From assembly GCA_963792785.1 (NCBI GenBank), contig CAWBXO010000001.1, positions 1,082,215-1,146,214 of the forward strand: a DNA stretch of 64,000 bases, given 5' to 3'. Below the pieces are notes generated by a model. It saw only the letters and a program-made list of their open reading frames with translations. It searched no databases and was not told the origin of the DNA. Below are positions 6,607 to 57,057 of this stretch, in pieces. This stretch comes from an uncultured Acidobacteriota bacterium (GTDB lineage Bacteria; Acidobacteriota; Vicinamibacteria; Vicinamibacterales; CAVVIG01). Position 1 is the first letter of the stretch; the number at the start of each line of letters is the position of its first letter. The translations under genes were made by a program, and so were the position numbers.

Positions 6607-8229
6607 ATGCCGTCCACGATTCGCCGCCTGGCTGTCGCTGCCAGCCTCGCCCTCGTCGCCGCGGCCCCGCTCGTCGCCCAGCGCGGGCCCACCGTCACCG
6701 CCGACGACCTGCGGCAGGGCCTCGCCGATCCCGGCAAGTGGCTGATGTTCGGCGGCACGTACGACGGCCAACGCCACAGTCCGCTCACGCAGATCACGCC
6801 GGAGAACGTCGGCCAGCTGGTGCCGCAGTGGACGTTCCAGACCGACACGCTCGGCCGCTTCGAGACGACGACGCTGCTCCTCGACAACGTCCTCTATGTC
6901 ACCGGCCCGCAGAACGTGGCCTTCGCCCTCGACGCCCGCACGGGCCGCCAGATCTGGCGCTACCGGCGCGAACTGCCGTCCCAGGGCCTCACGGCCTGCT
7001 GCGGCCTCGTGAACAAGGGCTTCGGCGTGCTTGGCGACAAGCTGTTCATGACCACGCTCGACGCCCACGTCCTGGCCCTCGACATGCGCACCGGCGACAT
7101 CGTCTGGGACGCGACGATGGAGGACTACCGGAAGGGGTACGCCTCGACGATCGCGCCGCTCGTCGTGAACGGCAAGGTGATCGTCGGCGTGGCCGGTGGC
7201 GAGTACGGGATCCGCGGCTTCATCGACGCGTACGACGCCGAGACCGGCGCGCGCGCCTGGCGCTTCTACACCGTGCCGGCGCCGGGCGAGGCCGGCAGCG
7301 AGACGTGGGCCGGCGACGCGTGGGAGCGCGGCGGCGCCTCGGTGTGGACCACGGGGACCTACGACCCCGAGCAGAACCTCGTGTTCTTCGGCACCGGCAA
7401 CCCGAGCCCCGATTACCACTCGGCCAGCCGGGAAGGCGACAACCTCTACGCCACGTCGCTCGTGGCGCTCGACGCCGACACGGGCGCGCTGCGCTGGCAC
7501 TACCAGTTCACGCCGCACGACACGCACGACTGGGACTCGACCAACGTGCCCGTGCTGGCGGATCTGACGATCGACGGGCGGCCCCGCAAGGTCGTGATGA
7601 TCGCCAACCGCAACGGCTTCTTCTACACGCTCGATCGCACGAATGGCCGGCTCATCGTCGGGCGGCCGTTCGTCGAGACGAACTGGGCCAAGGAGATCGG
7701 CCCCGACGGCCGGCCCGTGGAGCTGCCCGGCCACCTGCCGGACGAAAAGGGATCGATCACGTGCCCCGACCTGGTCGGCGGGACGAACTTCATGCCGCCG
7801 TCCTACGATCCGGACCTGCAGCTTTTCTTCGTGACGGCGCGCGAGACGTGCGCGACGTTCTTCGCCTGGGAGCCCCAGTACAGCGCGGGCGACAGCTTCA
7901 CGGGCGGCGCGACGTCGCGCGCCCCCGGCAGCGACGAGCCCTGGGGCGCCCTGCGCGCGATCGACCCGCGCACGGGCGAGCGCCGCTGGGAATTCAAGTA
8001 CCCATCGCCGTCGTGGGCCGGCGCGCTCTCGACGGCCTCGGGCCTGGTCTTCACGGGCGACGCGCAGGGCAACTTCTACGCGCTCGACTCGCGTTCGGGC
8101 CGGATGGTCTATCACTACCAGCTCGGCTCGAACCTCCACGGCACGTCGCCGGTGACCTACATGCTCGACGGCAAGCAGATCGTGCTCGTGCCGGCCGGCA
8201 CGAACCTGACGGCGTTCGCGATCCCGTGA
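6607..8229 (+). CDS. PQQ-dependent dehydrogenase, methanol/ethanol family
   Basis: Internal ATG 6607 is preceded by GAGGAG. Has a signal peptide (MPSTIRRLAVAASLALVAAAPLVAQ), beta-propeller W-repeats and the vicinal Cys pair LTACCGLVNKG typical of quinoprotein ADH/MDH. Confidence 0.9.
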   Translation: MPSTIRRLAVAASLALVAAAPLVAQRGPTVTADDLRQGLADPGKWLMFGGTYDGQRHSPLTQITPENVGQLVPQWTFQTDTLGRFETTTLLLDNVLYVTGPQNVAFALDARTGRQIWRYRRELPSQGLTACCGLVNKGFGVLGDKLFMTTLDAHVLALDMRTGDIVWDATMEDYRKGYASTIAPLVVNGKVIVGVAGGEYGIRGFIDAYDAETGARAWRFYTVPAPGEAGSETWAGDAWERGGASVWTTGTYDPEQNLVFFGTGNPSPDYHSASREGDNLYATSLVALDADTGALRWHYQFTPHDTHDWDSTNVPVLADLTIDGRPRKVVMIANRNGFFYTLDRTNGRLIVGRPFVETNWAKEIGPDGRPVELPGHLPDEKGSITCPDLVGGTNFMPPSYDPDLQLFFVTARETCATFFAWEPQYSAGDSFTGGATSRAPGSDEPWGALRAIDPRTGERRWEFKYPSPSWAGALSTASGLVFTGDAQGNFYALDSRSGRMVYHYQLGSNLHGTSPVTYMLDGKQIVLVPAGTNLTAFAIP

Positions 8230-8284
8230 CGCCGGCCGGCGATCACCCGGCGGGCGGCTGATATACTAGCGGTTTCAGGCATCC

Positions 8285-9340
8285 ATGCTGAGACCGACCG
8301 ACGACCTCCGCATTCGCGACGTCCGCCCGCTGATCCCGCCCTCGATCCTGCTCGAGGAGATCCCGATCTCCGAGGCGGCGTCGAACGTCGTGGCCGACGC
8401 GCGCCAGGCCGTGGCGGAAAGCCTCGCCGGACGCGACCGCCGTCTCGTGGTCATCGCCGGCCCATGCTCGATCCACGACACCCGGGCCGCGCTCGAGTAC
8501 GCCGCGCGGCTCCACGTCCTGGCCCGCCGCTACGCCGGCGCGCTCATCATCGTCATGCGGGCCTACTTCGAGAAGCCGCGCACCTCCGTCGGCTGGAAGG
8601 GCCTCATCAACGACCCCGACCTGGACGAGAGCTTCCACATCAACAAGGGCCTGCGGCTCGCGCGGCAGCTGCTCGTCGACGTGAACGCCATGGGCCTCCC
8701 GACGGCGTCCGAGTTTCTCGACACGCAGATCCCGCAGCACATCGCGGATCTGACGTCGTGGGTGGCGATCGGCGCGCGCACGACCGAGAGCCAGGTGCAC
8801 CGAGAGCTGGCGTCCGGGCTGTCGATGCCGGTCGGCTTCAAGAACACGACGGACGGCGGCGTGGAGGTGGCGATCGACGCCGTCCTCGCCGCGCGGTCGT
8901 GCCACTGGTTCCCGTCAGTGACCAAGCAGGGCGTGTCGGCCATCTTCCAGACGACCGGGAACGAGGCGTGCCACGTGATCCTGCGGGGCGGCTCGCGGAC
9001 GGGGCCGAACTACGACGCCGAGCACATCGCCAAGGTGGCCGAGCGGCTCGCCCACCGCGGCCTCGGCGAGGCGGTGATGGTGGACTGCTCGCACGGCAAC
9101 AGCCGGAAGGATCACCTGCGGCAGATCGAGGTGGCCGCGGACCTGAGCGCGCAGATTGCGGGGGGATCGCGCCGGATCTTCGGCGTGATGCTCGAGAGCC
9201 ACCTCGTGGAGGGCCGCCAGGACTACGTGCCCGGCCAGCCCGCCGTCTACGGCCAGAGCATCACCGACGCCTGCCTGTCGCTCGAGCAGACCGAGCCGAT
9301 CCTCGAGCAGCTCGCGAACGCGCAGCAGACGCGCGGCTAG
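8285..9340 (+). CDS. 3-deoxy-7-phosphoheptulonate (DAHP) synthase, class I
   Basis: 351-aa ORF with class-I AroF/G/H-type blocks: LVVIAGPCSIHD, RAYFEKPRTSVGWKGLINDP, MVDCSHGNS. Confidence 0.95.
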   Translation: MLRPTDDLRIRDVRPLIPPSILLEEIPISEAASNVVADARQAVAESLAGRDRRLVVIAGPCSIHDTRAALEYAARLHVLARRYAGALIIVMRAYFEKPRTSVGWKGLINDPDLDESFHINKGLRLARQLLVDVNAMGLPTASEFLDTQIPQHIADLTSWVAIGARTTESQVHRELASGLSMPVGFKNTTDGGVEVAIDAVLAARSCHWFPSVTKQGVSAIFQTTGNEACHVILRGGSRTGPNYDAEHIAKVAERLAHRGLGEAVMVDCSHGNSRKDHLRQIEVAADLSAQIAGGSRRIFGVMLESHLVEGRQDYVPGQPAVYGQSITDACLSLEQTEPILEQLANAQQTRG

Positions 9341-9347
9341 GAAGGTC

Positions 9348-9364
9348 GGGCAGGGCGGGTCGGG
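9348..9364 (+). other. G-quadruplex-forming motif (GGG-ca-GGG-c-GGG-tc-GGG)
   Basis: Four GGG tracts with 1-2-nt loops, 8 nt after the DAHP synthase stop codon. Confidence 0.5.
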
Positions 9365-9382
9365 CAGGTAGGCCGGGTCGGC

Positions 9383-9417
9383 AAAGAAAAAGGCGGGACG
9401 CCTTTCGGCCTCCCGCC
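9383..9417 (-). terminator. rho-independent terminator of cassette A (minus strand)
   Basis: Read on the minus strand: GGCGGGA-GGCCGAAAGGCG-TCCCGCC followed by TTTTTCTTT. Lies 58 nt downstream of the stop at 9475. Confidence 0.7.
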
Positions 9418-9422
9418 CCTTC

Positions 9423-9478
9423 GTTCCTCAGTTCTGAGTTCCTGAATTCCTCAGTTCCTCAGCTTCTCAGCTTCTCAC
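9423..9478. repeat. degenerate octamer tandem repeat (GTTCCTCA / GCTTCTCA family, about 7 units)
   Basis: The run reads gttcctca gttctga gttcctgaa ttcctca gttcctca gcttctca gcttctca. It lies between the stop of 9475..10455 and its terminator. Confidence 0.75.
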
Positions 9479-10455
9479 TTCACCGTCACCTTGACGTGCG
9501 TCGTCGACCAGCAGCACTGGTCACCGCCGCCGCGCGTGCTGGAGTCGTCCTTGGCCTGGGCCATCAGCCAGTACTCGCCGGGCGCGTCAAACCACGCCTC
9601 GGTCTTGGCCTGCATGACCTCGCTCTCGTCGACGACCTTGCCATCCTCGCGCTTCTTGCTGAGGCTCAGCGAGGGATCGTCGATCGAGACCCAGCCCGGG
9701 CCGCGGTACTTCGACCACTCGAGGGTGACGTCCGTCGGCGCGCCACGGCCGCGGCCGAGCAGGCCCGCCGCACCACCGCGGCCCCCACGGCCGCCGCGCC
9801 CGCGCCCGGCATTGGCGTTGGCCACCGCCGCGCCGCCCAGGCCCTCGTACGGGTCGTACGTGTTGCCGAGGTCGGTCACGAACACCGTCAGATCGAGGGC
9901 CTTGTTGACCCCGACCTCGTAGGTCTGGGCGACAGGCTCCAGCACCGGCCCCCAGTGCCCCTTGTCGCTCGACGAGAAGCTGATGTGGGGCGGCGTGTTG
10001 CCGGTGGCCGCGAACTTGAAGAAATCGACCCAGTACGGCGGGTTGTTCCAAAAGCTGACCGTGCTCGTCTGCCCGTTGGCGACCAGCGTCCACGTGAGCC
10101 GGTTGGTGGTGCTCACGTTCGCTGGGAACCGCGCCGCGAAGACACCCCACTGCCGGCCGGTGAGGAAATGCGTCGGTTGCCCCAGATCGGCGGTGGCGCC
10201 GTCGAAATGGTTGCTCGGGCCGATGGGAATATCCAGCTCCTGATCCTTGTTCCGGTTGTAGTAGCCAATCAGGGCGGCGTTGGCGCCATCCTCGAGTGGC
10301 CCCCAGCCTTCGAACGCCGGATAGATGGCATCGCCGCTGGCCAGGTACGGACCCGGCAGGATGCCGGTCGGGATGCCCTGCCCGGAGCCGACGGCAATCC
10401 AGCCGGCGACAGCAACTCCGGCGAGGGCCGCAACCAAGGACCGCTTGACATGCAT
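9475..10455 (-). CDS. secreted partner protein of cassette A (unknown family, 326 aa)
   Basis: ATG 10455 (MHVKRSLVAALAGVAVAG...) lies within ORF 9475..11217. Shares the block EGW..DG...GY.NRN..E.D.P.G..N.F...GQPTHF with 17304..18305, 57058..58077 and 58081..59094. Has an RGG-rich insert. Confidence 0.8.
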   Translation of the reverse strand: MHVKRSLVAALAGVAVAGWIAVGSGQGIPTGILPGPYLASGDAIYPAFEGWGPLEDGANAALIGYYNRNKDQELDIPIGPSNHFDGATADLGQPTHFLTGRQWGVFAARFPANVSTTNRLTWTLVANGQTSTVSFWNNPPYWVDFFKFAATGNTPPHISFSSSDKGHWGPVLEPVAQTYEVGVNKALDLTVFVTDLGNTYDPYEGLGGAAVANANAGRGRGGRGGRGGAAGLLGRGRGAPTDVTLEWSKYRGPGWVSIDDPSLSLSKKREDGKVVDESEVMQAKTEAWFDAPGEYWLMAQAKDDSSTRGGGDQCCWSTTHVKVTVK

Positions 10456-10556: not shown

Positions 10557-11918
10557 CTACTGCTGTTGCTGCTGCTGGCTGTCCTGCGACAGACGAGCCT
10601 TGCGCGCGGCCACTTCCGTCTTGTAGTCCTCGTCGTTCATGTAGGTGACGTTCACCCACGCGTGCGCCATTTCGTCGACGGTGCGATCGCCGTAGCCCAC
10701 CCAGACGCTCGGGTCGGGGTTGTTCTTGTTGGCGCTCGTGTTGTCGTGCCAGCCCGTGATCCGGAGGATCGTGCCCTTCGGGAACATCGGGGCGGCATCG
10801 TCGGCGTAGAAGTAGCTGGTCATCCAGTTGAAGTTGAACTTGTCGACGTAGCTCAGCACCTGGATCTGGCCGCTCGGCAGAATGGCGTCCATCTCCATGG
10901 CCTTGCCGCGCAAGTGCATGTGCGGCTGGAAGCTCTCGACGCGCGCGTTCTCCTTCAGCACGAAGAAGCCCTGGGTGGCCTTGATGGTGTTCGGCGGGAT
11001 GTCGACGCCGCCGGCGTTGGTCGCGCCCATCAGGTGCAGCACCTGGCGGTACTTCGGCTCCTGGCCCTTCGGGTAGAAGTAGATGCCGAGTTCCACGTAG
11101 TCGGTGATGTCTTCCTCGACGCCGTGGTAGTGGATGTCCCAGTGGAGGCGCGAGCCGGGGAGCATCAGCTTGCCGCTGTCCGGCCGCATGAGCTCGCCCT
11201 GCTTGCCGACGGCCCATTCCATGAACGTGCCGCCCTGCGCGGCCAGATCCGGGTCATCGCTGACGGCGTAGAGCGGGTTGTCTTCCTGCTGCTCGAGGCG
11301 CGCGATCGCGTGGTGCGTGATCTTGCGGCCCGCGACGGTGTGCGGACGGATCTCGATGGCGCGGACCCAGCGCGGCTCCGTGATGCCGGTCTCGACGACC
11401 GGACGCCACCAGGTGTCGTTCGCACCGGCCTTCTGCGTCCACGGCGTGGACTGGATGATCAGGTCCGGCTCTTTCTGGCCGAACATCGACGCGTAGTACC
11501 AACCCTGACCCGTCGGCCACTGAATCGCGGCCGGCATGTCCTTCGGATCGCCCTTCGGCGCGCCGCCGTCGATCCACGCGAGAATCGTCGCGAGCTGCGT
11601 GTCGCTCAGCGAACGGTCGTTCTTGAACTCCTGGATGCCCACCTCTTTGTTGATGGACCAGGGCGGCATCTGCCGATCCGCCACGCGCGCGCGAATCGAG
11701 CGAATCCACGGTCGGGTCGACTCATACGTCTGGAGCGACATCGGCGCGATGGAATCCGGACGGTGGCAGGCTTCGCACTTCTCCTGGAAGATCGGTGCGA
11801 TGTCCTTGGTGAAGGTTGGCGTGGTGGCTGCGTCTGCGGCTGACGCCACGGCCGGTGCCGCTGCGCCCACCGCGAAGACCAGAGCCAGCACACCGAAGGA
11901 TTTCCACGTCGTGCTCAT
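10557..11918 (-). CDS. haem-c (PSCyt1-like) / PHM-DBH-like copper monooxygenase fusion protein, poly-Gln C-terminus (cassette A)
   Basis: 453 aa with a signal peptide and RBS AAGGAG. Haem-c domain motifs: CEACH, MPPW, LSDTQLATILAWIDGGAP. Copper-ligand-like motifs: ITHHAI, DIHYHG, QPHMHLRG, TVDEMAHAW. Ends in QQQQQQ. Confidence 0.85.
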   Translation of the reverse strand: MSTTWKSFGVLALVFAVGAAAPAVASAADAATTPTFTKDIAPIFQEKCEACHRPDSIAPMSLQTYESTRPWIRSIRARVADRQMPPWSINKEVGIQEFKNDRSLSDTQLATILAWIDGGAPKGDPKDMPAAIQWPTGQGWYYASMFGQKEPDLIIQSTPWTQKAGANDTWWRPVVETGITEPRWVRAIEIRPHTVAGRKITHHAIARLEQQEDNPLYAVSDDPDLAAQGGTFMEWAVGKQGELMRPDSGKLMLPGSRLHWDIHYHGVEEDITDYVELGIYFYPKGQEPKYRQVLHLMGATNAGGVDIPPNTIKATQGFFVLKENARVESFQPHMHLRGKAMEMDAILPSGQIQVLSYVDKFNFNWMTSYFYADDAAPMFPKGTILRITGWHDNTSANKNNPDPSVWVGYGDRTVDEMAHAWVNVTYMNDEDYKTEVAARKARLSQDSQQQQQQ

Positions 11919-13322: not shown

Positions 13323-13935
13323 GTGCGACGATTCCCTGGGCCGGCCGCCGTGGTGCTCGCGGCGCTCACGTGCGGCGCCGGCGTCGCCCGCGCGCACGAC
13401 CTCGCGCGGAGCGAGTCCCGGGTGACCCTCGCGGGGCCGCGCGAACTGCAGGCCGGCCTCATCCTCAACCTGCTCGACTTCGGCGCCCTGGCGGATTCTG
13501 GATCGCAACCGCGACCAGGTGTTCACGTACGACGAGGTGGACCGCGGCATCGATCGGCTCTACGCGCTCGTGAAGGATCACTTCTCCGTCGGCGGCCCGC
13601 AGGCGGCGGCGTCGACATCGCTCGATCGCTACGAGCTGCTCGACACGACGGCGGTCCGCCTCGACCTCACGTACCGCTTCGACGCCGACGTCACGGCGAT
13701 TCGCGTCACCTCTACGCTCGGCGAGGTCTCGCAGCCCGAGCACGTCCACGTGACGGGGGTCGAGGGCGCCGATGGCGCGCGCGAGCAGGCGGTGCTGGCG
13801 GGCGCCACGCGCGAGGCGACGTTCGCGCTCCCGGGCGGCCTCTCGTTCGCGCGCCTCGGGCGCGTCGTGCTCGTCGCGCTCGCGCTCATGAGCCTCGTCG
13901 CCTACGCGCTGGTACGGCGCTTCGTCCTGTCGTAG
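13323..13935 (+). pseudogene. small membrane-anchored EF-hand-like protein, +1 frameshift near 13496
   Basis: GTG 13323 gives a signal-like N-terminus (VRRFPGPAAVVLAALTCGAGVARA). The reading frame switches at ggaTTctg into ORF 13519..13935. The join restores DLDRNRDQVFTYDE, which fits the EF-hand loop pattern D-x-N-x-D-x6-E. Has a C-terminal TM helix. Confidence 0.65.
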
Positions 13936-13948
13936 GATCGATCCGCCC

Positions 13949-15343
13949 ATGCATCGTTCCCGCGCCCTGCTGGCGGCGGCCGCCGCGCTCATCCTTGCTG
14001 CCCTCGTCGTGGCTGGCCTCGTGCTGTGGCTGCGCGTCGCGCCGGCGGCGCCGGGCAGCGGCGACGCGCCGGTGCGGATTCCCGCGACCGGCCCGATCAC
14101 CGTCGCGCTGGCCGGCGACACGCTGCTCGTCGGGTCGCCGGACGATCCCGCCGCGACGCCGGTGTTCGACCTCGTGCGCGGCGCCACGCTCGGCCTGGCG
14201 AATCTCGAGATGAACCTGCTCGACGACGACACGCCGGCGGATCCGGCGCGATGGCCGTTCGCGCCGCCACGCGGCGCCGCCACGCTGCGCGCGCTCGGCT
14301 TCGACGCCGTCTCGCTGGCCAACAACCATGCCACCGACTACGACGAGGCCGGGCTGCGCGCCACCGCGCGCGTCCTCGACGCGCACGGCCTGCTGCACGC
14401 CGGCACGGGCGCCGACCTCGCGGCCGCGCGCGCCGCGGCGGTCGTGGGCGCCGGCGCCCGCGGCGCCGCGCTCATCTCGATCACCACCTCGTCGTCGGAA
14501 CGATCGCGCGCCACGCTGACGCGCGGCGACATCACCGGCCGCCCCGGCGTGAACCCGCTCCGGTACCGCGCGGAAGTGACCGCCGACCCGCAGACGTTCG
14601 CCAGCCTCAAGTCCACCGTCGAGATGCTCCAGGCTGGCGACGCCTCCGAGGACGCGCTCACGATGTTCGGCACGACGGTCCGCCGCGGCGCGGCCACGTC
14701 GGTCGACTTCCTCGTGGACGAGGACGACGTGCGGGAGGCGCTGGACGCCGTCCGGGCGGCGCGGCGGGCGGCCGGGCTCGTGATCGTGGCCGTGCACAGC
14801 CACGAACCGAACAACCGGAGCGACGCGCCCGCGGGCTTCGTGCGCGAGTTCGCGCACCAGGCGATCGACGCGGGCGCGAGCCTCGTCGTCGGCCACGGGC
14901 CGCACCGGCTGCGCGGCATCGAGCGCTACAAGAACGGCGTGATCCTCTACAGCCTCGGCAACTTCCTGTATCCCGTGGCGGCGCTCGATCCGCGGGCGGC
15001 CGACGAGTTCGACGCCGGCGCGGATCTCTTCGCGCGCGCCGTCGGCATGCTCGGCGGCGTCGCGGGCGCGGGGAGCTTCGCCGAGGACCTTCGGGATCCG
15101 TCGTGGTGGACGAGCGTCGTGGCGGTGGCGACGTTCGAGGACGGCGCGCTGACCGGCCTGGCGCTGCACCCGATCGACCTGGGCGTCGACCGGCCGCTCG
15201 ACGAACGCGGCGTGCCCCACCCCGCCGAAGGCGCGCGCGCCACGGCGATCCTCGAGACGCTCACGCGGCTCTCCGAGCCGTTCCAGACGCGCATTGAAAC
15301 TGAGAAGCTGGGGAACTGGGAAACTGGGGAAGTCGCTCCCTAG
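13949..15343 (+). CDS. CapA family (PGA_cap metallophosphatase-like) protein
   Basis: 464 aa with an N-terminal TM helix. Motifs: GDTLL, ANLE, SLANNHATDYDEAGL, VHSHEPN, GHGPH. Confidence 0.85.
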   Translation: MHRSRALLAAAAALILAALVVAGLVLWLRVAPAAPGSGDAPVRIPATGPITVALAGDTLLVGSPDDPAATPVFDLVRGATLGLANLEMNLLDDDTPADPARWPFAPPRGAATLRALGFDAVSLANNHATDYDEAGLRATARVLDAHGLLHAGTGADLAAARAAAVVGAGARGAALISITTSSSERSRATLTRGDITGRPGVNPLRYRAEVTADPQTFASLKSTVEMLQAGDASEDALTMFGTTVRRGAATSVDFLVDEDDVREALDAVRAARRAAGLVIVAVHSHEPNNRSDAPAGFVREFAHQAIDAGASLVVGHGPHRLRGIERYKNGVILYSLGNFLYPVAALDPRAADEFDAGADLFARAVGMLGGVAGAGSFAEDLRDPSWWTSVVAVATFEDGALTGLALHPIDLGVDRPLDERGVPHPAEGARATAILETLTRLSEPFQTRIETEKLGNWETGEVAP

Positions 15344-15380
15344 CTCCTCAGCTCCTCAGTTCCTCAGTTTCCTCAGCCCC
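15300..15380. repeat. inverted octamer-repeat block at the convergent CapA/RmuC 3' ends
   Basis: ctgagaag ctggggaa ctgggaaa ctggggaa (15300..15331) faces ctcctcag ctcctcag ttcctcag tttcctcag (15344..15376). The arms are imperfect reverse complements and encode both C-terminal tails. Confidence 0.7.
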
Positions 15381-16568
15381 AAACGGAAGCCCCTCGGTCA
15401 GCTCGGGCGCCTGGAGCGCGCGGGGCACGCGGTCGATCACGTCGATGGCGGGAATGTCCTCGCTCACGCCGGCGGACTGCAGCTCCTTGAACTTGCGCGC
15501 CTTGATGAGGACGTTGCCCTCGAGAGAGCCGACGGCGTTGTTATAGGCATCGAGGCTCGCCTTGAGCTTGCCGCCGAGATTCTCGAAATGCCCGCCGAGC
15601 ACGCGCACGGCGTCGTAAAGCTGGCGCCCCAGCTCGCTGATGCGGCGCGCGTTCTCTTCCACCGCCTGCTGCTGCCAGCCGTACGCCACCGCGCGCAGCA
15701 GCGCGATGAGCGTCGTCGGGCTGGCCGGGATCACGTGCCGCTCGACGCCGAACTCGATGAGGGTGGGATCCTGCTCGAGGGCCGCGCTGAAAAACACCTC
15801 GCCCGGCAGGAACATCACGACGAACTCGGGGCTCGGCTGCACGTGCGCCGCATAGCTCTTGCCCGCGAGCTGCAGGAGGTGGGTCCTCACCTGGCGCGCG
15901 TGATCCGCGAGCAGCCGCTGGCGCGACTCCTCGTCGGTGGCCTCGAGGGCTTTCAGGTACGCGTCGAGCGGCACCTTGGCGTCGATGACCACGCGCTTAC
16001 CGCCGGGGAGGCTGACGATCACGTCGGGGCGCAGCCGCGCGCCGTCCGCCCCCTCGATGGTCTGCTGCTCGGTGAAGTCGCAGTGCTCCATCATGCCCGC
16101 GAGCTCCACGACGCGCTTGAGCTGGATCTCACCCCAGCGCCCGCGCACGCCGGGCCGCTTCAAGGCGTCGACGAGCCGGTGCGTCTCGGCGCGCAGGCCC
16201 TGACCGGCCGTGTCGAGCGCGGCGATCTTCTCGAGGAGCATGGCGCCGGTCTCGGAGCGGCGCCGCTCGGCGTCCTTGATCTCGCGGTCGACCGACTCGA
16301 GCGCCTTTGCCATCGGCGAGAGCAGATCTTCGATGGCCTTCTTCCGCGCGTCGATGTCGGCGGTCGTCTGGGCGCGGGTCTCGCGCAGACGGCTCTCCGC
16401 CAGGTCGAGAAACGCCTGATTGTTCTGCCGCAGCGCCTCGGCGCTCAACGACTGGATCGTGTCGCGCAGCGCCCGGTCGGCCTTCGGGCGCGCCACGAGC
16501 CAGCCGACGAGGACACCCGCGGCCAGCGCCGCGACGAGCAGGATGGCGGAGAGTGGTTCTATGGACAC
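15348..16568 (-). CDS. rmuC: DNA recombination protein RmuC
   Basis: 406 aa with an N-terminal TM helix, a coiled-coil and the conserved RmuC C-terminal core (RPDVIVSLPGGKRVVIDAKVPL ... FVVMFLPGE). Confidence 0.9.
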   Translation of the reverse strand: MSIEPLSAILLVAALAAGVLVGWLVARPKADRALRDTIQSLSAEALRQNNQAFLDLAESRLRETRAQTTADIDARKKAIEDLLSPMAKALESVDREIKDAERRRSETGAMLLEKIAALDTAGQGLRAETHRLVDALKRPGVRGRWGEIQLKRVVELAGMMEHCDFTEQQTIEGADGARLRPDVIVSLPGGKRVVIDAKVPLDAYLKALEATDEESRQRLLADHARQVRTHLLQLAGKSYAAHVQPSPEFVVMFLPGEVFFSAALEQDPTLIEFGVERHVIPASPTTLIALLRAVAYGWQQQAVEENARRISELGRQLYDAVRVLGGHFENLGGKLKASLDAYNNAVGSLEGNVLIKARKFKELQSAGVSEDIPAIDVIDRVPRALQAPELTEGLPFGAEETEELRS

Positions 16569-16573
16569 AGTAT

Positions 16574-16745
16574 AGTCGTCAGTCGTCAGTCGCTAGTCGT
16601 CAGTCCGACAGTCGCTAGTCGTCAGTCCGTCAGTCGCTAGTCGCTAGTCGTCAGTCGTCAGTCGCTAGTCGTCAGTCCGACAGTCGCTAGTCGTCAGTCC
16701 GTCAGTCGCTAGTCGCTAGTCAGTCGCTAGTCGGCTAGTCGTCAG
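16574..16745. repeat. heptamer microsatellite (AGTCGTC/AGTCGCT/AGTCCGWC, about 24 units) with a 72-bp higher-order unit x2.3
   Basis: Read directly from the sequence. It fills the whole space between the RmuC GTG start (16568) and the stop of 16742..17227. Confidence 0.9.
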
Positions 16746-17227
16746 CGGTTGACGACGAACGGTAGCCACGAGGGCGGCAGGGGCAGCTCGCGCGCCCGCA
16801 GCCCGCGCGCCACGGCGGCCAGTGCGCGCCGTGCCTCGAGCTGTGCATGGCGACGCTCGTCCGCGAACCGCTCCGGCCCGCGCGGCGCGATCCCGCGCGC
16901 CGCCGCGCGATCCGCCTGGAGCCGCGACAGCCGCGCGCGGTTCACTGGTTCGAACGGCTGACCGGTCTCGAGCCGCTCGGGGCTGCCCGTGAACACGCGG
17001 CCCGCGTCCTCGAGCGCGCGCTGGCGCCGCGCCTCCGCTCGGTGGCAGGCGAAGCACAGCGTGCGCGCGCGCCTGACGTCGATGCCGCGCCGCTCGGCTT
17101 CGGCCAGCGCGGCCCGGCAGGCCGGGCACAGGGCCCGATGGGCCAGCGCCTGCAGTTCGCCGCCAGGTAGCGTAACCCACTCATCTGCAACAGTTTCCAC
17201 GGAGTCGTGACCGGTCTCGATCTTCAT
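16742..17227 (-). CDS. hypothetical zinc-ribbon-like protein (161 aa)
   Basis: ORF with CPAC...CFAC cysteine pairs and an Arg/Ala-rich helical remainder. No signal peptide. No family recognised. Confidence 0.5.
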   Translation of the reverse strand: MKIETGHDSVETVADEWVTLPGGELQALAHRALCPACRAALAEAERRGIDVRRARTLCFACHRAEARRQRALEDAGRVFTGSPERLETGQPFEPVNRARLSRLQADRAAARGIAPRGPERFADERRHAQLEARRALAAVARGLRARELPLPPSWLPFVVNR

Positions 17228-17303
17228 GAGCCCAGTCTACGGCGGGGGTATGACAGGACGGGTCACACCGGGGAGAGCCTTTGGGGTTTCGTCGACGAGC
17301 AAC

Positions 17304-18305
17304 TCAGGGGGTGACCGTGACCGAGACGTTCTCGTCTGCCGTTGCGGGGCCATCATCGGCGCGCGCCCGCAGGACGTACGTGCCCGGCACGTCGAATGTG
17401 GCCGTCGTCGTCACCCTACCGTCGCTCGGCAACGGCGGAGCGAACCACACCGACGCCCAAGGCGAGTTGGCGCCGACGCGCAAGTCTTCCCACGTCTTGA
17501 TCTGCGGTGGGTCGAAATGCACGGCCGCCGGGCCGCGGTACTGAATCCACGAAAGGTGCAGCCCGTTGTTCTTGTGGACGCTGCCTTGACTCGGGGGCAC
17601 GCGCCAGATGTCCACGTCAGGCGTGTCGCTGACGTCCGACGATCCTGCGGCCGGCCCCTGACCGTTTGCGGCGGTCGTCTGTGCCCGCCGCGCCCGATTA
17701 ATGGCCTCTTCTTCGGTGGTCGCCTTGGGCATGCCGTCGTCGGTCACGTTCGCCACGAGCACCAAGGGCTGACCGACCTTGACGGTTCTGGTCCTGCTGC
17801 CTTCAACCTCGAGCGTCGGCGGCTTGTTCGCGCGCAGTTCCGGACTGCTCGCCATGCCGGGCAACGCGCCGGTGTCCGACGCCTCCGCCAGGGCGTCGAG
17901 CCTGTAGTCGGCGTTGAGCGAGGCATAGGCTTTGGACGTGCGGCCATGCGTCGTCAACGTCCACACCAACTCGTCTCGCTCGCCGAACTGACTGGGAACG
18001 GGGACCCTGAACACGTACCGGTTTCGCCGCGGGAAGAAATGCGTCGGCTGGCCCCGATCAACCGGTCCTGGCGCGAATCCATTGTCGAGGCCGACCGGCA
18101 CGTCGATCTCCTCTTCCCAGTTCTTGTTCATGTAGCCGAACACGAAGTACTTGGCCCCATCGGCGTTCTGTTCCCAGCCTTCGTATGCGGCCGAAATCGG
18201 TTGCCCCTTGGTATAGGTCAGCACCTGCGCGTGAACGCCGACGCCCGCCGAGCCGCTGGCCACGGCCAGACCGGCAGCGATGATGAACGGGGTTCTCGAC
18301 CACAC
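17304..18305 (-). CDS. secreted partner protein of cassette B (333 aa)
   Basis: GTG 18305 has GGGGA 8 nt upstream and lies 11 nt after the cassette B gene-1 stop. Motifs: AAYEGWEQNADGAKYFVFGYMNKNWEEEIDVPVG...DRGQPTHFFPRRNRYVFRVPVP. The C-terminus looks Ig/PKD-like (VPGTYVLRARADDG). Confidence 0.8.
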   Translation of the reverse strand: MWSRTPFIIAAGLAVASGSAGVGVHAQVLTYTKGQPISAAYEGWEQNADGAKYFVFGYMNKNWEEEIDVPVGLDNGFAPGPVDRGQPTHFFPRRNRYVFRVPVPSQFGERDELVWTLTTHGRTSKAYASLNADYRLDALAEASDTGALPGMASSPELRANKPPTLEVEGSRTRTVKVGQPLVLVANVTDDGMPKATTEEEAINRARRAQTTAANGQGPAAGSSDVSDTPDVDIWRVPPSQGSVHKNNGLHLSWIQYRGPAAVHFDPPQIKTWEDLRVGANSPWASVWFAPPLPSDGRVTTTATFDVPGTYVLRARADDGPATADENVSVTVTP

Positions 18306-18316
18306 GTGGGTGTCCC

Positions 18317-19792
<1,476 letters not shown>

Positions 19793-19863
19793 AGCGCACG
19801 CTCCTTCAAAGACCGGAAACTGGCGAGGTTGGCCTACTTGTAACGCCGATGGGCGCCGGGAAT

Positions 19864-19880
19864 TGTCGCGCTTTGTCGCA
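19864..19880. promoter_or_regulatory. TGTCGCG-N3-TGTCGCA direct-repeat operator candidate upstream of cassette B
   Basis: tgtcgcgctttgtcgca lies 72-88 bp upstream of ATG 19792. The same 10-bp-phased repeat occurs at 33971, 41488 and, in degenerate form, at 60774. Confidence 0.55.
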
Positions 19881-19884: not shown

Positions 19885-19946
19885 CTTCCCCAACTCCCCA
19901 ACTCCCCAGCTCCCCAGTTCCCCAGCTCCTCAGCTCCTCAGCTTCT
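19885..19946. repeat. octamer tandem repeat (TCCCCAAC/TCCCCAGC/TCCTCAGC, about 7 units)
   Basis: The run reads tccccaac tccccaac tccccagc tccccagt tccccagc tcctcagc tcctcagc. It overlaps the stop codon of the nitrilase-like gene. Confidence 0.8.
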
Positions 19947-30806: not shown

Positions 30807-33800
30807 TTAAAACTCGAGCGTTCCGGTCAGGCGTGCGATCCGCGCGTTCAGGAAACCCGTCGGATACAAGAACCGCGCCCCATACGTGCTGCTCGTGCTC
30901 TGGATGGAGCTGCCGTTCAGCACGTTGTAGACGTCGAGCGCTCCGCGCAGGCGCGCCCAGCCCCCGACCCTGAACGACTTGTTCACCGACAGGTCGAGCT
31001 GCTGGAAGCGATCGCCGAAGACCGAGTTCGGCGTGTACAGGTAGATCGACTGCGCGGTGTTCAACGTCGTGCGCGACGGATCCTTGAACCGCACATGCGC
31101 GGACGACGACCGTCATGACCGCGTTGTTCGTGGAGCCCGGCGTGTTGCGGTAAATGAGGCTGGCCGTCACACCGCCTCTGATGGGCACGCTGCCGCGCAC
31201 GCGGAAGTCGGCCAGGTTCCCCCATGACGTCACGTTCCGGCAGAACGGCCCGCCGGGAAGCGGCGTACCGTTGATGTCCGCGGGCTGGTTCGGGACGTCC
31301 ACCGTGTAGCAGTGGTCGTCCACCTGCCGCCCGATGTCCAGACCGCCGCCGATGTTGACCCCGTGCGGCAGCCGCCCTTCGGCCCCGAACGTGAAGCCGT
31401 CCCAGTAGCGCTTCTGCTTCCCGAACTCCTTCGCGTTGGTGACCCGGGTCTGCCCTTTCCCGAAGAACTGCGGCTTGAGGTCGTAGTAGCCGCACTGCTC
31501 CTGCCCCGCGTTGGGCAGCCGCGAGTCGTTCGGCACCGTGATGCAGAACTCGTCGAACGCCTCGGGCCCGTACAGCGTGTTCTCCGAAACGATGAAGCTG
31601 CCGTCCGCGTTGTGGTTGTAGGCCACGTTCACGGCCAGCCCGTGGAGGATCTCGTGGTCCACCTCGAGGTTGTAGTCCCAGAGGAAGTCGCGATTGTCCT
31701 TGATCACCGAGTCGTCGAAAATCGTGGCCGACGGGATGAACTGCCCGAAGAACTGGTTCGAGATGGCCCCGCACTCGCCGTTCGCGCTGAAGTTCGCGAG
31801 GTCGCAGTCCGGGATGTAGTCGCCGTTCGTGTCGGTCCAGTTCCGGTACGCCGAGCTCACCGACGAGGTGAACGGATGGAACCGGCGCGTCATGTCGCTG
31901 CGGCTGAGCTGATTGAACCGGCCCATCGAGAACTTGATCGCCGTCCGCCCATTGCCGAACACGTCGTACGCCACGCCAAGCCGCGGGTTGACGTCCTTCC
32001 AGATCGGCACGCCCGACAGCTTGTCCACGTGCCGCGCCGGCACGTACGGGCCCGCCGGCAGGTCGGCCGCCGGGAAGCCCATCGTGATGTAGTCGTACCG
32101 GAGACCCAGGTTGAGCGTCATCCGCTGGATCGTCCACGCGTCCTGCCCGTAGAGCCCGATCTCGTGGTTCTGCCGCTCCTGCTGGAGGAACGGCAGCGCG
32201 CGGTACTGGATCCGGGCCGGCTTCCCGTTCAGGAAGTCGTAGCTCAGGCCGTCCTTGTCGTTGTTGTCGCGGCCCTCGTCGTTGAACGCCTGCTCGTCCG
32301 AGATGCCCGACCTTGATGTTGTGGGTGCCCGTCACGTAGGACGCCGAGAACCGCTCGGCGCTCCGGCCCGTGCGGGCAATCGGCGCCGTCAGCGACGCGG
32401 GCGCCCCGTAGCGGTAGCCGGTGGCCAGTTCGAGGATCGACCGGTCGTCACGCGTGACGCCCGTCTGCGGGAAGTTCACCCAGTTCGCCGTCTGCCACGA
32501 GAGGCCGGCCTCGAGGAGCAGCCGGTTCGTCACCGGCATCGTCCACGTGCCCTGCACCACGCCCGACGGATACCAGTCCCACCCCGTGATCGCTTCGATG
32601 GCCGCGGCCCCGGCGTTCGCCGTTGTGCAGCGGCACGACTTCTGGATGTCCGCGTAGAAGTTAATCCGCTGCTTGCCGGTCGCCTGCCACGTCAGGCGCC
32701 CCGAGTGGTTCCGATACCAGTCGAAGCTCGCCGCCGGCTTGCCCGTGGCGTAGAGCGCCGCCTGGTCCGCGAACGGCGTGCCCGGCTGCCCCGGATAGAA
32801 CAGCGTCGCCGTGTTCGAGTTGCCAGATTTTTCTTGCAGCGGATTGTAATAGGCGCCCGGCTGGTTCGTGCGCTCGCCCCAGCGCGCGATCGCCGCGAAG
32901 TACCACAGCCGGTCGTGCACGATCGGCCCGCCCGACTGCCCGCCGAGGCGGAAGATCTTCTGCACCTCGCCGGCCGTGTCGATCCCGAACGCCCGCAGCG
33001 TGTCGTTGATGTTCGAGCCCTGCATCGCGCCGTTCGAGAAGTAGCCGTCCACGCTGCCGTGGAACGTGTTGCTGCCGCTCTTGGGAATCGCGTTGAGCGA
33101 CGTGCTGCCCGAGCCGGACTCGGCGCCCATGCCCGTCGTCTCGAGCTGCAGCTCCTGAATGTTGCCGCTGTCGGTGATGTACCCCACGCCCGACGCCGCG
33201 CCGATGAAATACTGGTTCCGGAAGCCGTCGAACGAGGCGCGCGTCCCCGTCTTGCCGTGATAGAAGGTGTAGGCGCCCTGCGCCGACCAGGTGTCGCGCG
33301 TGCCGCCGACATCGGCCTGCGTCGCGGCGAAGCCCGGCGTCACGTACGCCAGCGTCTGCAGCCCGACGTTGCCGCTCGGCAGGTCTTCGAGCTGCGACGT
33401 GCTGAGCGTGGACTGCTGGCGAACCGTCTGCGTGTCCACGACCGGCGACGCACCCGTGACCGTGATGGTCTCCGAGATGGCGCCCACCGTCATGGTGATG
33501 TTGACCGAAGCCGTGAACCCCGACCCGAGCACAATGCCCTCGCGCCGGACCGTCGAGAACCCGGGGAGCGTGAAGGTGACCGTGTAGTTGCCCGGCCGCA
33601 GGTCGACGATGTTGTAGCGGCCCTGCGCATCCGTGACCGCGGTCCGCACCTTCTCAATCAAGGCCGGACTGGCCGCTTCGACCGTGACGCCTGGCATGGC
33701 CAGGTTGTCGTTGTCGCGGACGATGCCGGCGATGCCGGCCGCCTGCTGGGCCGCAACCGGCCCCGCCCACAATGACGCGCAGATGAGCGCCCCCAAGATG

Positions 33801-33841
33801 ACGATCCCGGCTCGGCGCTGCTTCTGGTGACTCCCCGTCAC
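30807..33841 (-). pseudogene. Oar-like TonB-dependent receptor (CarboxypepD_reg + plug + barrel), copy 2, two +1 frameshifts (about 32305 and about 31095-31099)
   Basis: GTG 33841 follows AAGGAGG. Three consecutive frames (31061..33892, 30745..32121, 30807..31094) are collinear with intact copy 38340..41375. The extra base is visible by direct alignment: GTCGGGCATCTCGG here against GTCGGGATCTCGG in copy 1. Confidence 0.85.
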
Positions 33842-33898: not shown

Positions 33899-33918
33899 GA
33901 TAGTATAAATATACTATC
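33899..33918. promoter_or_regulatory. perfect AT-rich palindrome GATAGTATA-AA-TATACTATC upstream of OMP copy 2
   Basis: 20-bp inverted repeat in an AT-rich island, 58-77 bp upstream of GTG 33841. A sequence this AT-rich stands out in a 70% GC genome. Confidence 0.5.
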
Positions 33919-33970
33919 CGCATAGCCGGGACACCTTACCACCCCCGAGATCCCTGTCAACAGGAACTGA

Positions 33971-33987
33971 TGTCGCGAAGTGTCGCA
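33971..33987. promoter_or_regulatory. TGTCGCG-N3-TGTCGCA direct-repeat operator candidate (OMP copy 2)
   Basis: tgtcgcgaagtgtcgca lies 130-146 bp upstream of GTG 33841. Confidence 0.5.
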
Positions 33988-34045: not shown

Positions 34046-35739
<1,694 letters not shown>

Positions 35740-35743
<4 letters not shown>

Positions 35744-36381
35744 GGTAGCGTCACCAGGCCGTGGCGAATGGCGTAGGCCACGAGCTCGGCGGTCTTGTGA
35801 AGACCGAGCGCGCTCATGATGTTGGCGCGGTGAACGGCGACCGTGTTCGCGCTCAGATCCAGATCGACGGCGATTTCACGGTTGGATCGGCCGTCGCAAA
35901 TCAGCTGCAGGACCTCCAGCTCGCGGGCCGTCAGGGCGGAGTTGCGGTCGCCCTTGAGCGCGTCGGCCTTCAGGTCCGCGAGGGCCGGGTCGAACACGGT
36001 TTCACCGGCGGCGGCCCGCTTCACCGCGTCCGCCAGATCGAGATCGAGGGCGCTTTTCAGCACGTAGCCCCGCGCGCCCGCCTCGATCGCCTGGCGGACC
36101 AGCGTCTCCTCGGCGTGCATACTCAGCATCAGCACCGCCGCGTCGGGCAGATCGCGCAGGATCTGCCGCATCGCCACGAGTCCGCTCATGCCCGGCATCG
36201 CGCAGTCCATCACGATCACGGCCGGCCGCAGGCTCCGCGCCAGCTCGACGGCCTCGCCGCCGTCGCTCGCCTCGCCCACGACGATGATCGACGGATCGTC
36301 CTCGAGCATGCGCCGGACGCCGCGCCGCACCAGGTTGTGGTCGTCGACCAGGAGCACGGTGATGCGAACCTCAGCCGGCAC
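35740..36381 (-). CDS. NarL/FixJ (LuxR-type HTH) response regulator
   Basis: 213 aa. Receiver domain (VLLVDDH...VIVMDCAMPGMSG) plus LuxR HTH (LTARELEVLQLICDGRSNREIAVDLDLSANTVAVHRANIM). Confidence 0.9.
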
Positions 36382-37801
36382 GAATGGTCAGCTCCCTCCG
36401 CTCCGCCCACGGCTCGAGCGGCACGCGCAGCCGAACCCGCGTGCCGCCGGATTCAGGTGTCTCGAACACCACGGTCCCGCCGACGAGCGCGGCCCGCTCC
36501 CGCATGCCGACCAGGCCCAGGCCGCGCCGCGGCGTGTCGGGGGCGATCCCGTGCCCGTGGTCCTCCACCTCCAGCTCGACGGCCGTCTCGGCCAACCGCA
36601 AGCGCACCCACACCCGGCCCGTCGCCGCGTGGCGCACGACGTTGCTGAGCGCCTCCTGCAGGACGCGATACACCTGAATGGCGACGCCGCCCGCCACCGG
36701 CCGCGGCGGACCGCTGCGTTCGTAGGTGATCTCCAGACCGGTCTGGCGCCGCATGGTCGACACGTACTCGTCGATCGTCGCGGCCAGCCCGATCTGTTCG
36801 AGGGCCGACGGATGCAGGCTCTGCGAGAGACCGCGCACGCTGTCGAGCGCGGTCTGGGCAATCTCGCAGACCTCTCGAAGGTCCGCCTGCACGGGCGACC
36901 CGACGGACATCTGTCGCGCCGCGCGGCCCACCATCGACCCGATCGCCGTCAGGACCTGGCCGAGCTCGTCGTGCAGCTCGCGCGCGATGTCGCGCAGCGT
37001 CGACTCGCGCGCCGCGATGAGCTGCTGGGCGAGCTCGTGGCGATCGTCGGACAGGCGCGCCAGCTCGACGAACAGCCGCCGGTTCGAGCGGATCACGTAC
37101 AAGCTGGTCAGGATGATCGCGCCCAGCATCGCGGCGACGAACCAGATCACCTGGCTCCGGACGTCGCGATAGATGCCCTGCACGCGCGCCGCCGTCTCCT
37201 CTTCGGACGCGTTGTTCTGCACGAGCAGACGCGCCACGGCGGTGCCGAGCGCCGACTGCCGCGCCTGCAGCGAGAGTCGCACCTCGGTGCGCGCCTCGTC
37301 CTCCCGCCCGTCCCGGGCCGTCGCGAAGATCCGATCGGCCGCGTTCCAGAAGCGTACGACCGAGTCGCTCAGGTACTGCTGCTGCTCCGGCGTGCGACTC
37401 GCCGTCGCGACCGTTGCTTCGAGCCGCAGGGCATCGTCGAGATCCGTTCGGATGCGGGCGAACTGTGCCGACCAGGCCGTGAGCGGATACGGCTCTTCGT
37501 TGTCGAGGATGTCGCGCATGGCGAGGCCCAGCACGTTGAGGTCGTTCTGGATGCGCAGGAGCTGCAGCGAGTCCTTGCGGTTGCGGTCGGTGAGCCCGGT
37601 CTGGAGGGCCTGCAGTCCGGAAATCTGGCGGCTGACGTACCACCCGTCAGCCACGACCGCCACGAGCGTGACGAGCAGCCCGATCAGGAGGCCGGCGCTC
37701 GGAGACGAACGTGGAGATCGCGTCCAGTGCACCACAGTCGGATTGGGCGGACAGCCTATTGTCCGCCACGCTGCGGTCAAGAGTATAGGACGTGGCGGCA
37801 T
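36371..37801 (-). CDS. sensor histidine kinase (HisKA_3 / NarX-DesK type)
   Basis: 476-aa ORF with a TM region and H-box (ARELHDELGQVLTAI). HATPase_c motifs are present at the C-terminus. Overlaps the regulator gene by 11 nt. The start codon is uncertain. Confidence 0.85.
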   Translation of the reverse strand: MPPRPILLTAAWRTIGCPPNPTVVHWTRSPRSSPSAGLLIGLLVTLVAVVADGWYVSRQISGLQALQTGLTDRNRKDSLQLLRIQNDLNVLGLAMRDILDNEEPYPLTAWSAQFARIRTDLDDALRLEATVATASRTPEQQQYLSDSVVRFWNAADRIFATARDGREDEARTEVRLSLQARQSALGTAVARLLVQNNASEEETAARVQGIYRDVRSQVIWFVAAMLGAIILTSLYVIRSNRRLFVELARLSDDRHELAQQLIAARESTLRDIARELHDELGQVLTAIGSMVGRAARQMSVGSPVQADLREVCEIAQTALDSVRGLSQSLHPSALEQIGLAATIDEYVSTMRRQTGLEITYERSGPPRPVAGGVAIQVYRVLQEALSNVVRHAATGRVWVRLRLAETAVELEVEDHGHGIAPDTPRRGLGLVGMRERAALVGGTVVFETPESGGTRVRLRVPLEPWAERRELTIRAG

Positions 37802-37826
37802 GCCGCCGCCACGTCCAGGTGTCCCC

Positions 37827-38225
37827 TTAGTTGTTTAGATCGACGCGCAGGCCGTGGCTGGACGGGGTGTTGTCCTCCACCTTGTGATCGATCGTCCACA
37901 TCGCGCCCGCCACCACCACGCCGGTCACGATCGCGATGAGCGCCTTGCGCGCGCCGCTCATCCCGCTGGCCTCGAGGCCCGGCGCCTGCTGGGCCAAGAC
38001 CGCCGGGCCGCTCTGGGCCACGGGCAGCGCCGCGGCGAAGCTGGGAACCGTCGCGAGCCGCTCGGCCCGGGTCGTGACCGGATCGACGACCGCGTCTTTC
38101 ACCGCCAGGGTCCGCGCGGTTTCGCGAGCCACGCGGCCGGCCGACTCCAACAAGGTTTCTCCCGCGAACGCAGCCGACACATTGGCCATGGACACGGCCA
38201 AGGTCAACATCAACAACCGCTTCAT
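37827..38225 (-). CDS. small exported protein with C-terminal TM segment (132 aa), paralogue of 30413..30748
   Basis: Internal ATG 38225 is preceded by GGAGGCGGG. Signal peptide MKRLLMLTLAVSMANVSAAFAGE. The conserved tail matches copy 2. Confidence 0.75.
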   Translation of the reverse strand: MKRLLMLTLAVSMANVSAAFAGETLLESAGRVARETARTLAVKDAVVDPVTTRAERLATVPSFAAALPVAQSGPAVLAQQAPGLEASGMSGARKALIAIVTGVVVAGAMWTIDHKVEDNTPSSHGLRVDLNN

Positions 38226-38294
38226 CCCGCCTCCTCGACTCTTGACTCGGACCCGAGAACAGGTCCTCACTTTTACCAATCGACGCGGAGAAGA

Positions 38295-38324: not shown

Positions 38325-38339
38325 CTCAGCCGTTCTGTC

Positions 38340-54759: not shown

Positions 54760-54788
54760 GCCACATGATAACCCGGAGGTCCCGCGCC

Positions 54789-57053: not shown

Positions 57054-57057
57054 GGCA

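Follow-up and report, generated by a model that had tools for sequence, protein, structure and literature searches.

We analyzed a 64-kb stretch of DNA from an uncultured member of the Vicinamibacterales (Acidobacteriota), referred to below as the window (positions 1 to 64,000), and found in it a 17-bp direct repeat that precedes two gene cassettes, designated B and C, and two genes coding for outer-membrane proteins (OMPs), designated OMP1 and OMP2. Comparison of the repeat and its surroundings across genomes indicates that it is probably the operator through which a response regulator (RR) of the OmpR/PhoB family, encoded from position 63535 to the end of the window (protein P0121), activates transcription. 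The regulator gene is the last of an operon in which it follows genes for a periplasmic binding protein (SBP) and a sensor histidine kinase (HK), and this operon is transcribed divergently from cassette C. The window has a G+C content of 69.6%, and its proteins find their best homologs in the Vicinamibacterales, phylum Acidobacteriota.

The pattern TGTCGCG-N3-TGTCGCA (TGTCGCGNNNTGTCGCA) has exactly three matches in the window, located at 19864-19880, 33971-33987 and 41488-41504 and all on the + strand, while 100 dinucleotide-preserving shuffles contained none, so that no match is expected by chance. A fourth site, at 60774 (TGTCTTAactTGTCGCA), carries three mismatches relative to this pattern and is not significant when taken alone, a search tolerating three mismatches giving 18 hits in the window for 21 expected. 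Counting both strands, the window contains only five copies of the heptamer TGTCGCA, four of which belong to the four sites, and TGTC-N6-TGTCGCA occurs exactly four times. We scored the window with a position weight matrix (PWM) built from 12 sites of other genomes only, the window sites being left out. The site at 60774 obtained the highest score (25.1 bits), followed by those at 19864 (25.0 bits), 41488 (24.4 bits) and 33971 (22.1 bits), and the next-best position of the window reached 12.2 bits. The 17-bp matrix parts true sites from the background by more than 10 bits. With a matrix that included the window sites, the top score over 30 Markov-simulated windows was 18.9. The original prediction had placed the repeat at four locations, the one at 60774 as a degenerate copy, and all four are retained here, three as exact matches and the last on the strength of its PWM score and of orthologous sites in other genomes.

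All four sites are intergenic, lie 5′ of minus-strand start codons and keep one orientation relative to the downstream gene, as had been proposed. On the strand of that gene they share the form TGCGACA-N3-nGnGACA, and the putative operators read TGCGACAaagCGCGACA for cassette B (19864-19880, −), TGCGACActtCGCGACA for OMP2 (33971-33987, −), TGCGACAtctCGCGACA for OMP1 (41488-41504, −) and TGCGACAagtTAAGACA for cassette C (60774-60790, −). Start codons were selected by their Shine-Dalgarno sequence, which sets the repeat 72 bp from the start of cassette B (ATG at 19792), 130 bp from that of OMP2 (GTG at 33841), 113 bp from that of OMP1 (GTG at 41375) and 102 bp from that of cassette C (ATG at 60672). 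The OMP1 site falls in a divergent region shared with a CRTAC1-like gene at 41557, and site C falls between cassette C and the divergent SBP-HK-RR operon. Outside the 17 bp, no alignment is obtained between the flanks of any of the four sites, OMP1 and OMP2 included despite the 88-89% identity of their proteins, which shows that the sites are not duplicated promoter DNA. A third cassette of the window, cassette A, has only a single TGTCGAA half-site at 12020 and no PWM match, in agreement with the original description. We also ruled out that the element is part of a structured RNA, since no Rfam covariance model matched at its gathering score anywhere in the window.

Conservation of the element was assessed using orthologous promoters from nine other Vicinamibacterales contigs. 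In these promoters, the only conserved islands are the repeat, a −10-like TACAA(A/G) located 21-22 nt downstream, and the ribosome-binding site (RBS) with the start codon. Orthologs of the first gene of cassette B (gene 1) at four loci, L201 to L204 (95, 83, 80 and 79% identity), all carry the element in the same place, with the sense sequence TGCGACA-N3-(T/A/C)G(A/G/C)(G/T)ACA. The resulting five-promoter alignment contains an invariant repeat, TACAAG at 21-22 nt, and the RBS and start codon, the remainder having diverged. Five orthologous promoters of cassette C, whose proteins share 66-74% identity, display the same islands separated by diverged DNA, and orthologous site C in L206 to L210 reads TGCGACAagtTG(A/C)GACA.

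Loci related to cassette C were obtained through orthologs of the OmpR-type regulator (five loci, 71-79% identity). In four of the five related genomes (L206/L207, L208, L209 and L210), the SBP-HK-RR operon is divergent from a cassette promoter that bears the site. The corresponding regulators P0137, P0124, P0130 and P0153 (71-77% identity) are all encoded in SBP-HK-RR operons divergent from a cassette, and each of these genomes has a site of 26.3-26.8 bits in the intergenic region between cassette and SBP gene, with TACAAA 21-22 nt further on. The window included, an OmpR-family regulator is thus physically linked to its candidate operator in L206/L207, L208, L209 and L210, as is customary for operators of this family. 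Synteny between regulator operon and site therefore extends to four other genomes, or to five when L101, which was recovered by its exact site and has a paralogous SBP-HK pair, is counted.

The repeat recurs elsewhere ahead of the same gene families, namely gene 1 of B- and C-type cassettes and OMPs with a CarboxypepD_reg domain. L210 has a further site of 21.6 bits before an OMP gene adjoining its RR gene, with the same downstream TTACAAA, and L201 has a second exact site 5′ of another paralog of cassette gene 1. Two further Vicinamibacterales loci came from a scan for the exact 17-mer: L094 has the full layout before a PSCyt/PSD cytochrome-c protein, and L101 has it between the paralogous SBP-HK pair and an NHL-repeat protein that is followed by an OMP. 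None of 80 orthologous loci of the cassette A type, collected by scanning metagenomes with a cassette alignment, contains the motif upstream, and approximately 440 kb of such loci yielded no site of at least 16 bits, which marks the element as a specific operator as opposed to a feature common to promoters of this lineage. The idea of a shared operator in which two direct half-sites follow each other at one helical turn is thus supported in silico by the conserved islands, by the constant distance to the −10-like hexamer and by the recurrence of the repeat ahead of the same gene families.

The exact 17-mer had at least 120 matches in the genome collection, and those listed form a near-random sample across all phyla and are mostly inside genes. 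Sphingomonadales are over-represented, with 14 of the 120 matches listed (L085 470-486 and L042 2799-2815, as well as L013, L023, L028, L051, L052, L059, L060, L073, L077, L086, L092 and L115). Two of these belong to Erythrobacteraceae (L085, Altererythrobacter; L042, Tsuneonella) and resemble the window in having an exact TGCGACA-N3-CGCGACA, in the same sense orientation, at the head of an operon with an OmpR-family RR and a kinase. They differ in phylum and in the first gene of the operon, which codes for an EF-hand periplasmic protein, and their RR, whose receiver domain shares only ~40% identity with that of P0121, was judged non-orthologous. They probably represent an independent OmpR-family regulon in which a similar half-site would have been adopted by convergence.

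Sixteen sites, 12 from other genomes and the four of the window, were available to examine the organization of the element. All have GCGACA at positions 2-7 and, offset by 10 bp, a sequence close to GnGACA at positions 12-17. The consensus on the strand of the regulated gene, TGCGACA-N3-(T/C)G(A/C/G)GACA, consists of two 7-bp half-sites arranged head-to-tail and spaced by 10 bp from centre to centre, and no dyad or inverted symmetry was detected in or around it. All 16 sites have the geometry of OmpR/PhoB operators, that is, direct half-sites of 6-7 bp placed 10-11 bp apart.

Two arrangements relative to the predicted core promoter were observed, each with the fixed helical position typical of OmpR/PhoB operators. 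In the proximal layout, found for 13 of the 16 sites including B and C, a TAnAnn hexamer starts 21-22 nt after the repeat. This hexamer is TACAA[AG] in 10 of the 13 promoters and TAAAAA, TATAGT or TAGACT in the other three; several of the promoters read TGnTACAAA, which resembles an extended −10, and all 13 lack a −35 hexamer. If the hexamer is the −10 element, we infer that the repeat would span about −50 to −34 relative to the predicted transcription start, with its centre near −42, in a class-II-like position. The distal layout (OMP1, OMP2 and the second L201 site) has TTGAC[AC] 9-10 nt after the repeat and a −10-like hexamer 16-18 nt past it, so that the repeat lies ~32 nt from the −10. 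Its centre would be near −53/−54, about one helical turn further upstream than in the proximal promoters. An operator-to-−10 distance held to within 1 nt across a non-conserved spacer, together with the missing −35, is what would be expected of an activator that contacts RNA polymerase, and a repressor would not need such spacing.

For cassette B, the predicted −10 is TACAAG (19837-19842, −), located 21 nt after the operator and forming an invariant island in the five-promoter alignment. That of cassette C is TAAAAA (60747-60752, −), also 21 nt after the operator, which aligns with TACAAA of four orthologous promoters. The predicted core promoter of OMP2 (33933-33960, −) is composed of TTGACA (33960-33955), a 16-nt spacer and TAAGGT (33938-33933), its −35 starting 10 nt after the operator. 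The one predicted for OMP1 by a consensus scan (41449-41478, −) is composed of TTGACC, an 18-nt spacer and TACAGT, its −35 starting 9 nt after the operator.

We propose that the activator is the RR encoded last in the operon SBP (60867), kinase (61853), RR. The SBP and the kinase would together sense a periplasmic ligand, and the phosphorylated RR would dimerize head-to-tail on the repeat and recruit RNA polymerase. At cassettes B and C, the dimer would be bound around −42, its repeat ending 21 nt before the −10-like TACAAG or TAAAAA of promoters without a −35, and at the OMP promoters it would be bound one helical turn further upstream, around −53, before TTGAC(A/C). In the window, the regulon would then comprise cassettes B and C, OMP2, and OMP1 with the genes behind it, including a second, NarL-type two-component pair, and would exclude cassette A. 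Head-to-tail repeats are the usual geometry and the hallmark of OmpR/PhoB-family dimers, and are unusual for NarL/LuxR-type regulators. The recognition helix of the RR (RAVDHAIARLRKK) is conserved among its orthologs, and its closest solved relative is MtrA (2gwr, E = 2e-46). The original prediction had named an RR from either of the two systems of the window as the likely binder; of the two, the in silico evidence favors the OmpR-type one, given its synteny in four of five genomes and the head-to-tail repeat.

Several observations weigh against this interpretation. The closest relative of the RR on record (79% identity), at locus L205, has no site nearby, and this locus lacks the SBP gene, the cassette and a 5′ portion of the kinase gene. 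At positions 8141-10004 of this locus, a C-terminal fragment of OMP1 directly abuts the 5′-truncated kinase gene, which looks like the product of a ~21-kb deletion that would have removed the 5′ portion of OMP1 together with cassette C, the SBP gene and both operator sites. At the cassette-B-type loci L201 to L204, the site is present and the available flanks contain no orthologous RR, for which reason the link to this particular RR rests on the synteny of cassette C. Furthermore, the cassette C loci were selected through the RR and show co-occurrence, not exclusivity. The NarL-type pair also lies behind a motif-bearing promoter, that of OMP1, and closeness to a site is therefore not sufficient to tell which protein binds. 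Finally, the −10 and −35 elements are predictions based on resemblance to consensus and on conservation, and the −10 of OMP2 (TAAGGT) is weak and was missed by the consensus promoter scan.

Other explanations have to be considered in the light of these data. That the element is bound by some other transcription factor encoded elsewhere, perhaps a repressor occluding the −35 region, is unlikely. The cassette-B-type promoters of L201 to L204, which bear the site with no cognate regulator nearby, fit such a factor, as does the placement of the proximal site right next to the −35 region, from which a repressor could operate as well. On the other side, the lack of a −35 and an operator-to-−10 distance kept within 1 nt in 13 promoters are as expected for an activator, and the synteny with SBP-HK-RR is preserved in four other genomes (five with L101). 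The NarL/LuxR-type RR of the window (35740-36381; kinase at 36371-37801) is a still less probable binder. It would regulate its own expression via the OMP1 site while controlling the cassettes, and since its genes belong to the tightly packed string behind that site, a cascade is conceivable, as is autoregulation, a frequent property of two-component operons. However, NarL/GerE-family sites are typically inverted repeats, such as 7-2-7 heptamers, whereas the element is strictly head-to-tail and has no inverted heptamer symmetry in or around it, which led us to reject it as an operator of this type. The 10-20 kb loci L206 and L208 to L210, in which the site is conserved, contain no NarL homolog and always contain the OmpR-type operon. 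Conversely, L205 has the NarL pair without any site, although the OMP1 promoter is deleted there.

It is very improbable that the repeat is the −35-type element of an alternative sigma factor, for example of the extracytoplasmic function (ECF) type, with TACAAG as −10, even though the motif and TACAA(A/G) are found at a fixed distance in 10 promoters. Of the two spacing classes, 21-22 nt and ~32 nt, the second (OMP1, OMP2 and the second L201 site, all three with perfect repeats) has an ordinary TTGAC(A/C) in between, 9-10 nt after the repeat. A sigma factor does not fit because two spacings that differ by 11-12 bp would not be tolerated. In addition, a gap of 21 nt is too long for the −35/−10 spacing of the sigma-70 family, and the element is internally repeated, as is typical of dimeric factors. 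Functionless sites, due to chance or to promoter duplication, might be suspected given that OMP1 and OMP2 are recent paralogs and that the cassettes too are paralogous, but the flanks do not align, no match is expected by chance and the sites are conserved amid diverged surroundings. The shuffles, the cross-genome PWM and the promoter alignments effectively refute this last explanation.

As an operator of the OmpR-type RR, the element can be compared with those of characterized systems, such as the Pho boxes of PhoB, the TT(A/T/C)ACA repeats of Bacillus subtilis PhoP, and the OmpR and TorR boxes. Like these, it has two direct half-sites of 6-7 bp about one turn apart with a TGT/ACA core, overlaps or immediately precedes the −35 region in promoters where no good −35 hexamer is present, and is associated with a regulator that has a winged-helix Trans_reg_C domain and is encoded beside one of its targets. 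With its half-site TGCGACA / nGnGACA and its strict 10-bp period, it is not known to match any characterized box. Further differences from other OmpR/PhoB systems are the host, an uncultured member of the Vicinamibacterales, and the periplasmic binding protein gene that precedes the kinase gene. The E. coli Pho box, CTGTCAT-N4-CTGTCAT, has an 11-bp period, ends ~10 bp from the −10, replaces the −35 and activates transcription. The element shares with it a direct repeat with a TGTC core and would likewise activate in place of a −35, but we rejected a Pho box because the period here is 10 bp, the TGTCGC core is antisense to the regulated gene and the distance to the −10 is 21 nt. A PhoB regulon was likewise rejected: the kinase differs from PhoR by its large periplasmic domain and its putative partner SBP, and the targets are OMPs and cassettes related to cytochrome c and to peptidylglycine alpha-hydroxylating monooxygenase (PHM). 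No pst or pho gene was detected by Pfam among the window proteins.

In the TorT-TorS-TorR system, a periplasmic binding protein partners a sensor kinase, and TorR acts on direct repeats of 10-bp period by the divergent target operon. The system described here likewise combines genes for a binding protein, a kinase and an OmpR-family regulator, with 10-bp repeats by a divergent target, yet there is no sequence relation beyond the shared domain families, and the SBP is of the NMT1/phosphonate-binding-like type. MtrA of Mycobacterium tuberculosis binds two degenerate 7-bp direct repeats, yGTnaCc, separated by a 4-bp spacer (PMC11215152). The antisense half-site TGTCGCr agrees with this box in its first three positions (yGT) and in the C at position 6, but the likeness of the half-sites is partial and the spacer is 3 bp (10-bp period) in all 16 sites, compared with 4 bp (11-bp period), and we did not retain the MtrA box. 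The MtrA regulon consists of cell-wall and cell-division genes, as opposed to periplasmic oxidase cassettes and OMPs, and the two proteins are similar at family level only. Our literature searches returned no description of the motif or of the regulon. What is new here is the lineage, the sequence of the half-sites and the content of the regulon, the regulatory mechanism being conventional.

Regarding the regulator operon itself, the NMT1/phosphonate-binding-like SBP gene (60867-61850, +; assigned by Pfam) comes first and its product has an N-terminus of the twin-arginine/lipoprotein type; its synteny is conserved in L206 to L210. The HisKA/HATPase sensor kinase (61853-63538, +; Pfam) has a large N-terminal, periplasmic part. 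The proposed cognate RR (63535-64000, +) is cut by the window end within a sequence that includes the receiver domain; it belongs to the OmpR family, because the identical full-length P0121 has both a PF00072 receiver and a PF00486 Trans_reg_C domain. Both two-component pairs are therefore as first described, the NarL-type one also on the basis of its Pfam domains. A plausible promoter for the SBP-HK-RR operon is found at 60828-60867 (+), with TTGAAC, 17 nt and TACAAG. Because it ends 10 nt before an ATG that has no Shine-Dalgarno sequence, the sequence suggests a very short-leadered or leaderless mRNA. Relative to this promoter, site C would sit near −81 in reverse orientation. In L206 (4602-4618) and at the equivalent position of L209, a weaker direct repeat, TGCTA(C/A)AagcAGCGACA, is present on the strand of the SBP operon and could be an autoregulatory site of that operon; it has no counterpart in the window.

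Cassette C and the genes that follow it (52189-60672, −) comprise gene 1 (59200-60672), two paralogs of gene 2 (58081-59193 and 57058-58077), a DUF5916/CBM9 gene (54789-57053) and a PPIase-TPR-FG-GAP/ASPIC gene (52189-54918). L206 has gene 1, gene 2 and DUF5916 in the order of cassette C. Cassette B (16742-19792, −) comprises gene 1 (18317-19792), which codes for a cytochrome-c-fused PHM-like protein, gene 2 (open reading frame [ORF] 17304-18398) and an ORF of 161 amino acid residues (16742-17227). Directly adjoining operator site B, an 8-bp tandem repeat, TCCCCAGC, is present in ~7 copies at 19887-19943. This array runs into the stop codon of the CN-hydrolase gene located upstream and is absent from L201, the locus of the 95%-identical ortholog.

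Both OMPs are CarboxypepD_reg/beta-barrel outer-membrane proteins according to Pfam. OMP1 (38340-41375) heads a gene string (34046-41375, −) in which it is followed by an ORF of 150 amino acid residues (37827-38279), the HisKA_3 kinase (36371-37801), the NarL-type RR (35740-36381) and a CRTAC1-like gene (34046-35743). The genes of this string are separated by gaps of at most 60 nt or overlap, and this spacing is the basis on which we infer that they are probably cotranscribed. The spacer of the predicted OMP1 promoter (~41457-41472, −) reads AATCGTAATGAATTAC, an imperfect palindrome overlapping the core promoter, which resembles Zur-type boxes. OMP2 (30810-33841, −) is split over three frames, with shifts near 32310 and 31104 (tblastn), and represents either a recent pseudogene or a sequence affected by assembly indels. 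Between its operator and its start codon, an unusually AT-rich stretch contains a perfect palindrome with 9-bp arms (33899-33918; GATAGTATA-aa-TATACTATC). Its GATA...TATC ends resemble Fur-family boxes, which suggests a second, metal-type regulator acting on OMP2.

The three copies of cassette gene 1 in the window (B, 18317-19792; C, 59200-60672; A, 10557-11918; all on the minus strand) are mutual paralogs. Each codes for a protein with a signal peptide, an N-terminal CxxCH heme-c motif, a two-domain body and a C-terminal poly-glutamine tail, the tail being present in every member of this uncharacterized family, for which over 7,000 homologs were found (E ≤ 1e-20). Sequence searches of Pfam, NCBIfam and PDB assigned no family to cassette genes 1 to 3, and gene 1 has no solved or curated relative by sequence. 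The family was thus identified by fold comparison only. An AlphaFold model of gene 1 of cassette B, built from 51 sequences with a mean pLDDT (predicted local distance difference test) of 71, was matched by Foldseek to PHM and to dopamine beta-hydroxylase (E ~1e-6, probability 1.0). Residues invariant in the alignment are HH 217/218, HxH 278/280, HxH 346/348, Met 354, Met 428 and the N-terminal CxxCH. The model and these residues fit a two-copper PHM-like enzyme that would be fed by its fused cytochrome c. In L210, a gene located at 13925-16072, divergent from the OMP promoter that bears an operator, codes for TPR repeats fused to an N-terminal region that resembles cassette gene 1 and gives a weak Cu2_monoox_C hit.

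Knowledge of transcriptional regulation in Acidobacteriota is close to nil, and the Vicinamibacterales are abundant and mostly uncultured soil bacteria. A defined operator, together with a likely cognate two-component system, provides a testable regulon for this order. It ties together unannotated genes, namely the PHM-like cassettes, the CarboxypepD_reg/TonB-type OMPs and possibly the CRTAC1-like proteins and a second two-component system, which suggests that these genes could belong to a single pathway induced by a single periplasmic signal. More tentatively, and with somewhat less than even confidence, we put forward that the triad and its operator constitute a conserved ligand-inducible regulon of soil Vicinamibacterales, the core of which would be the cytochrome-c-fused, PHM-like copper monooxygenases with poly-glutamine tails, co-expressed with OMPs of the TonB-dependent type and with the NarL-type system as a cascade. 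If this is true, one of the most abundant soil phyla would possess a previously unrecognised uptake-and-oxidation pathway, and the operator would be a handle for finding both the members of this pathway and its inducer.

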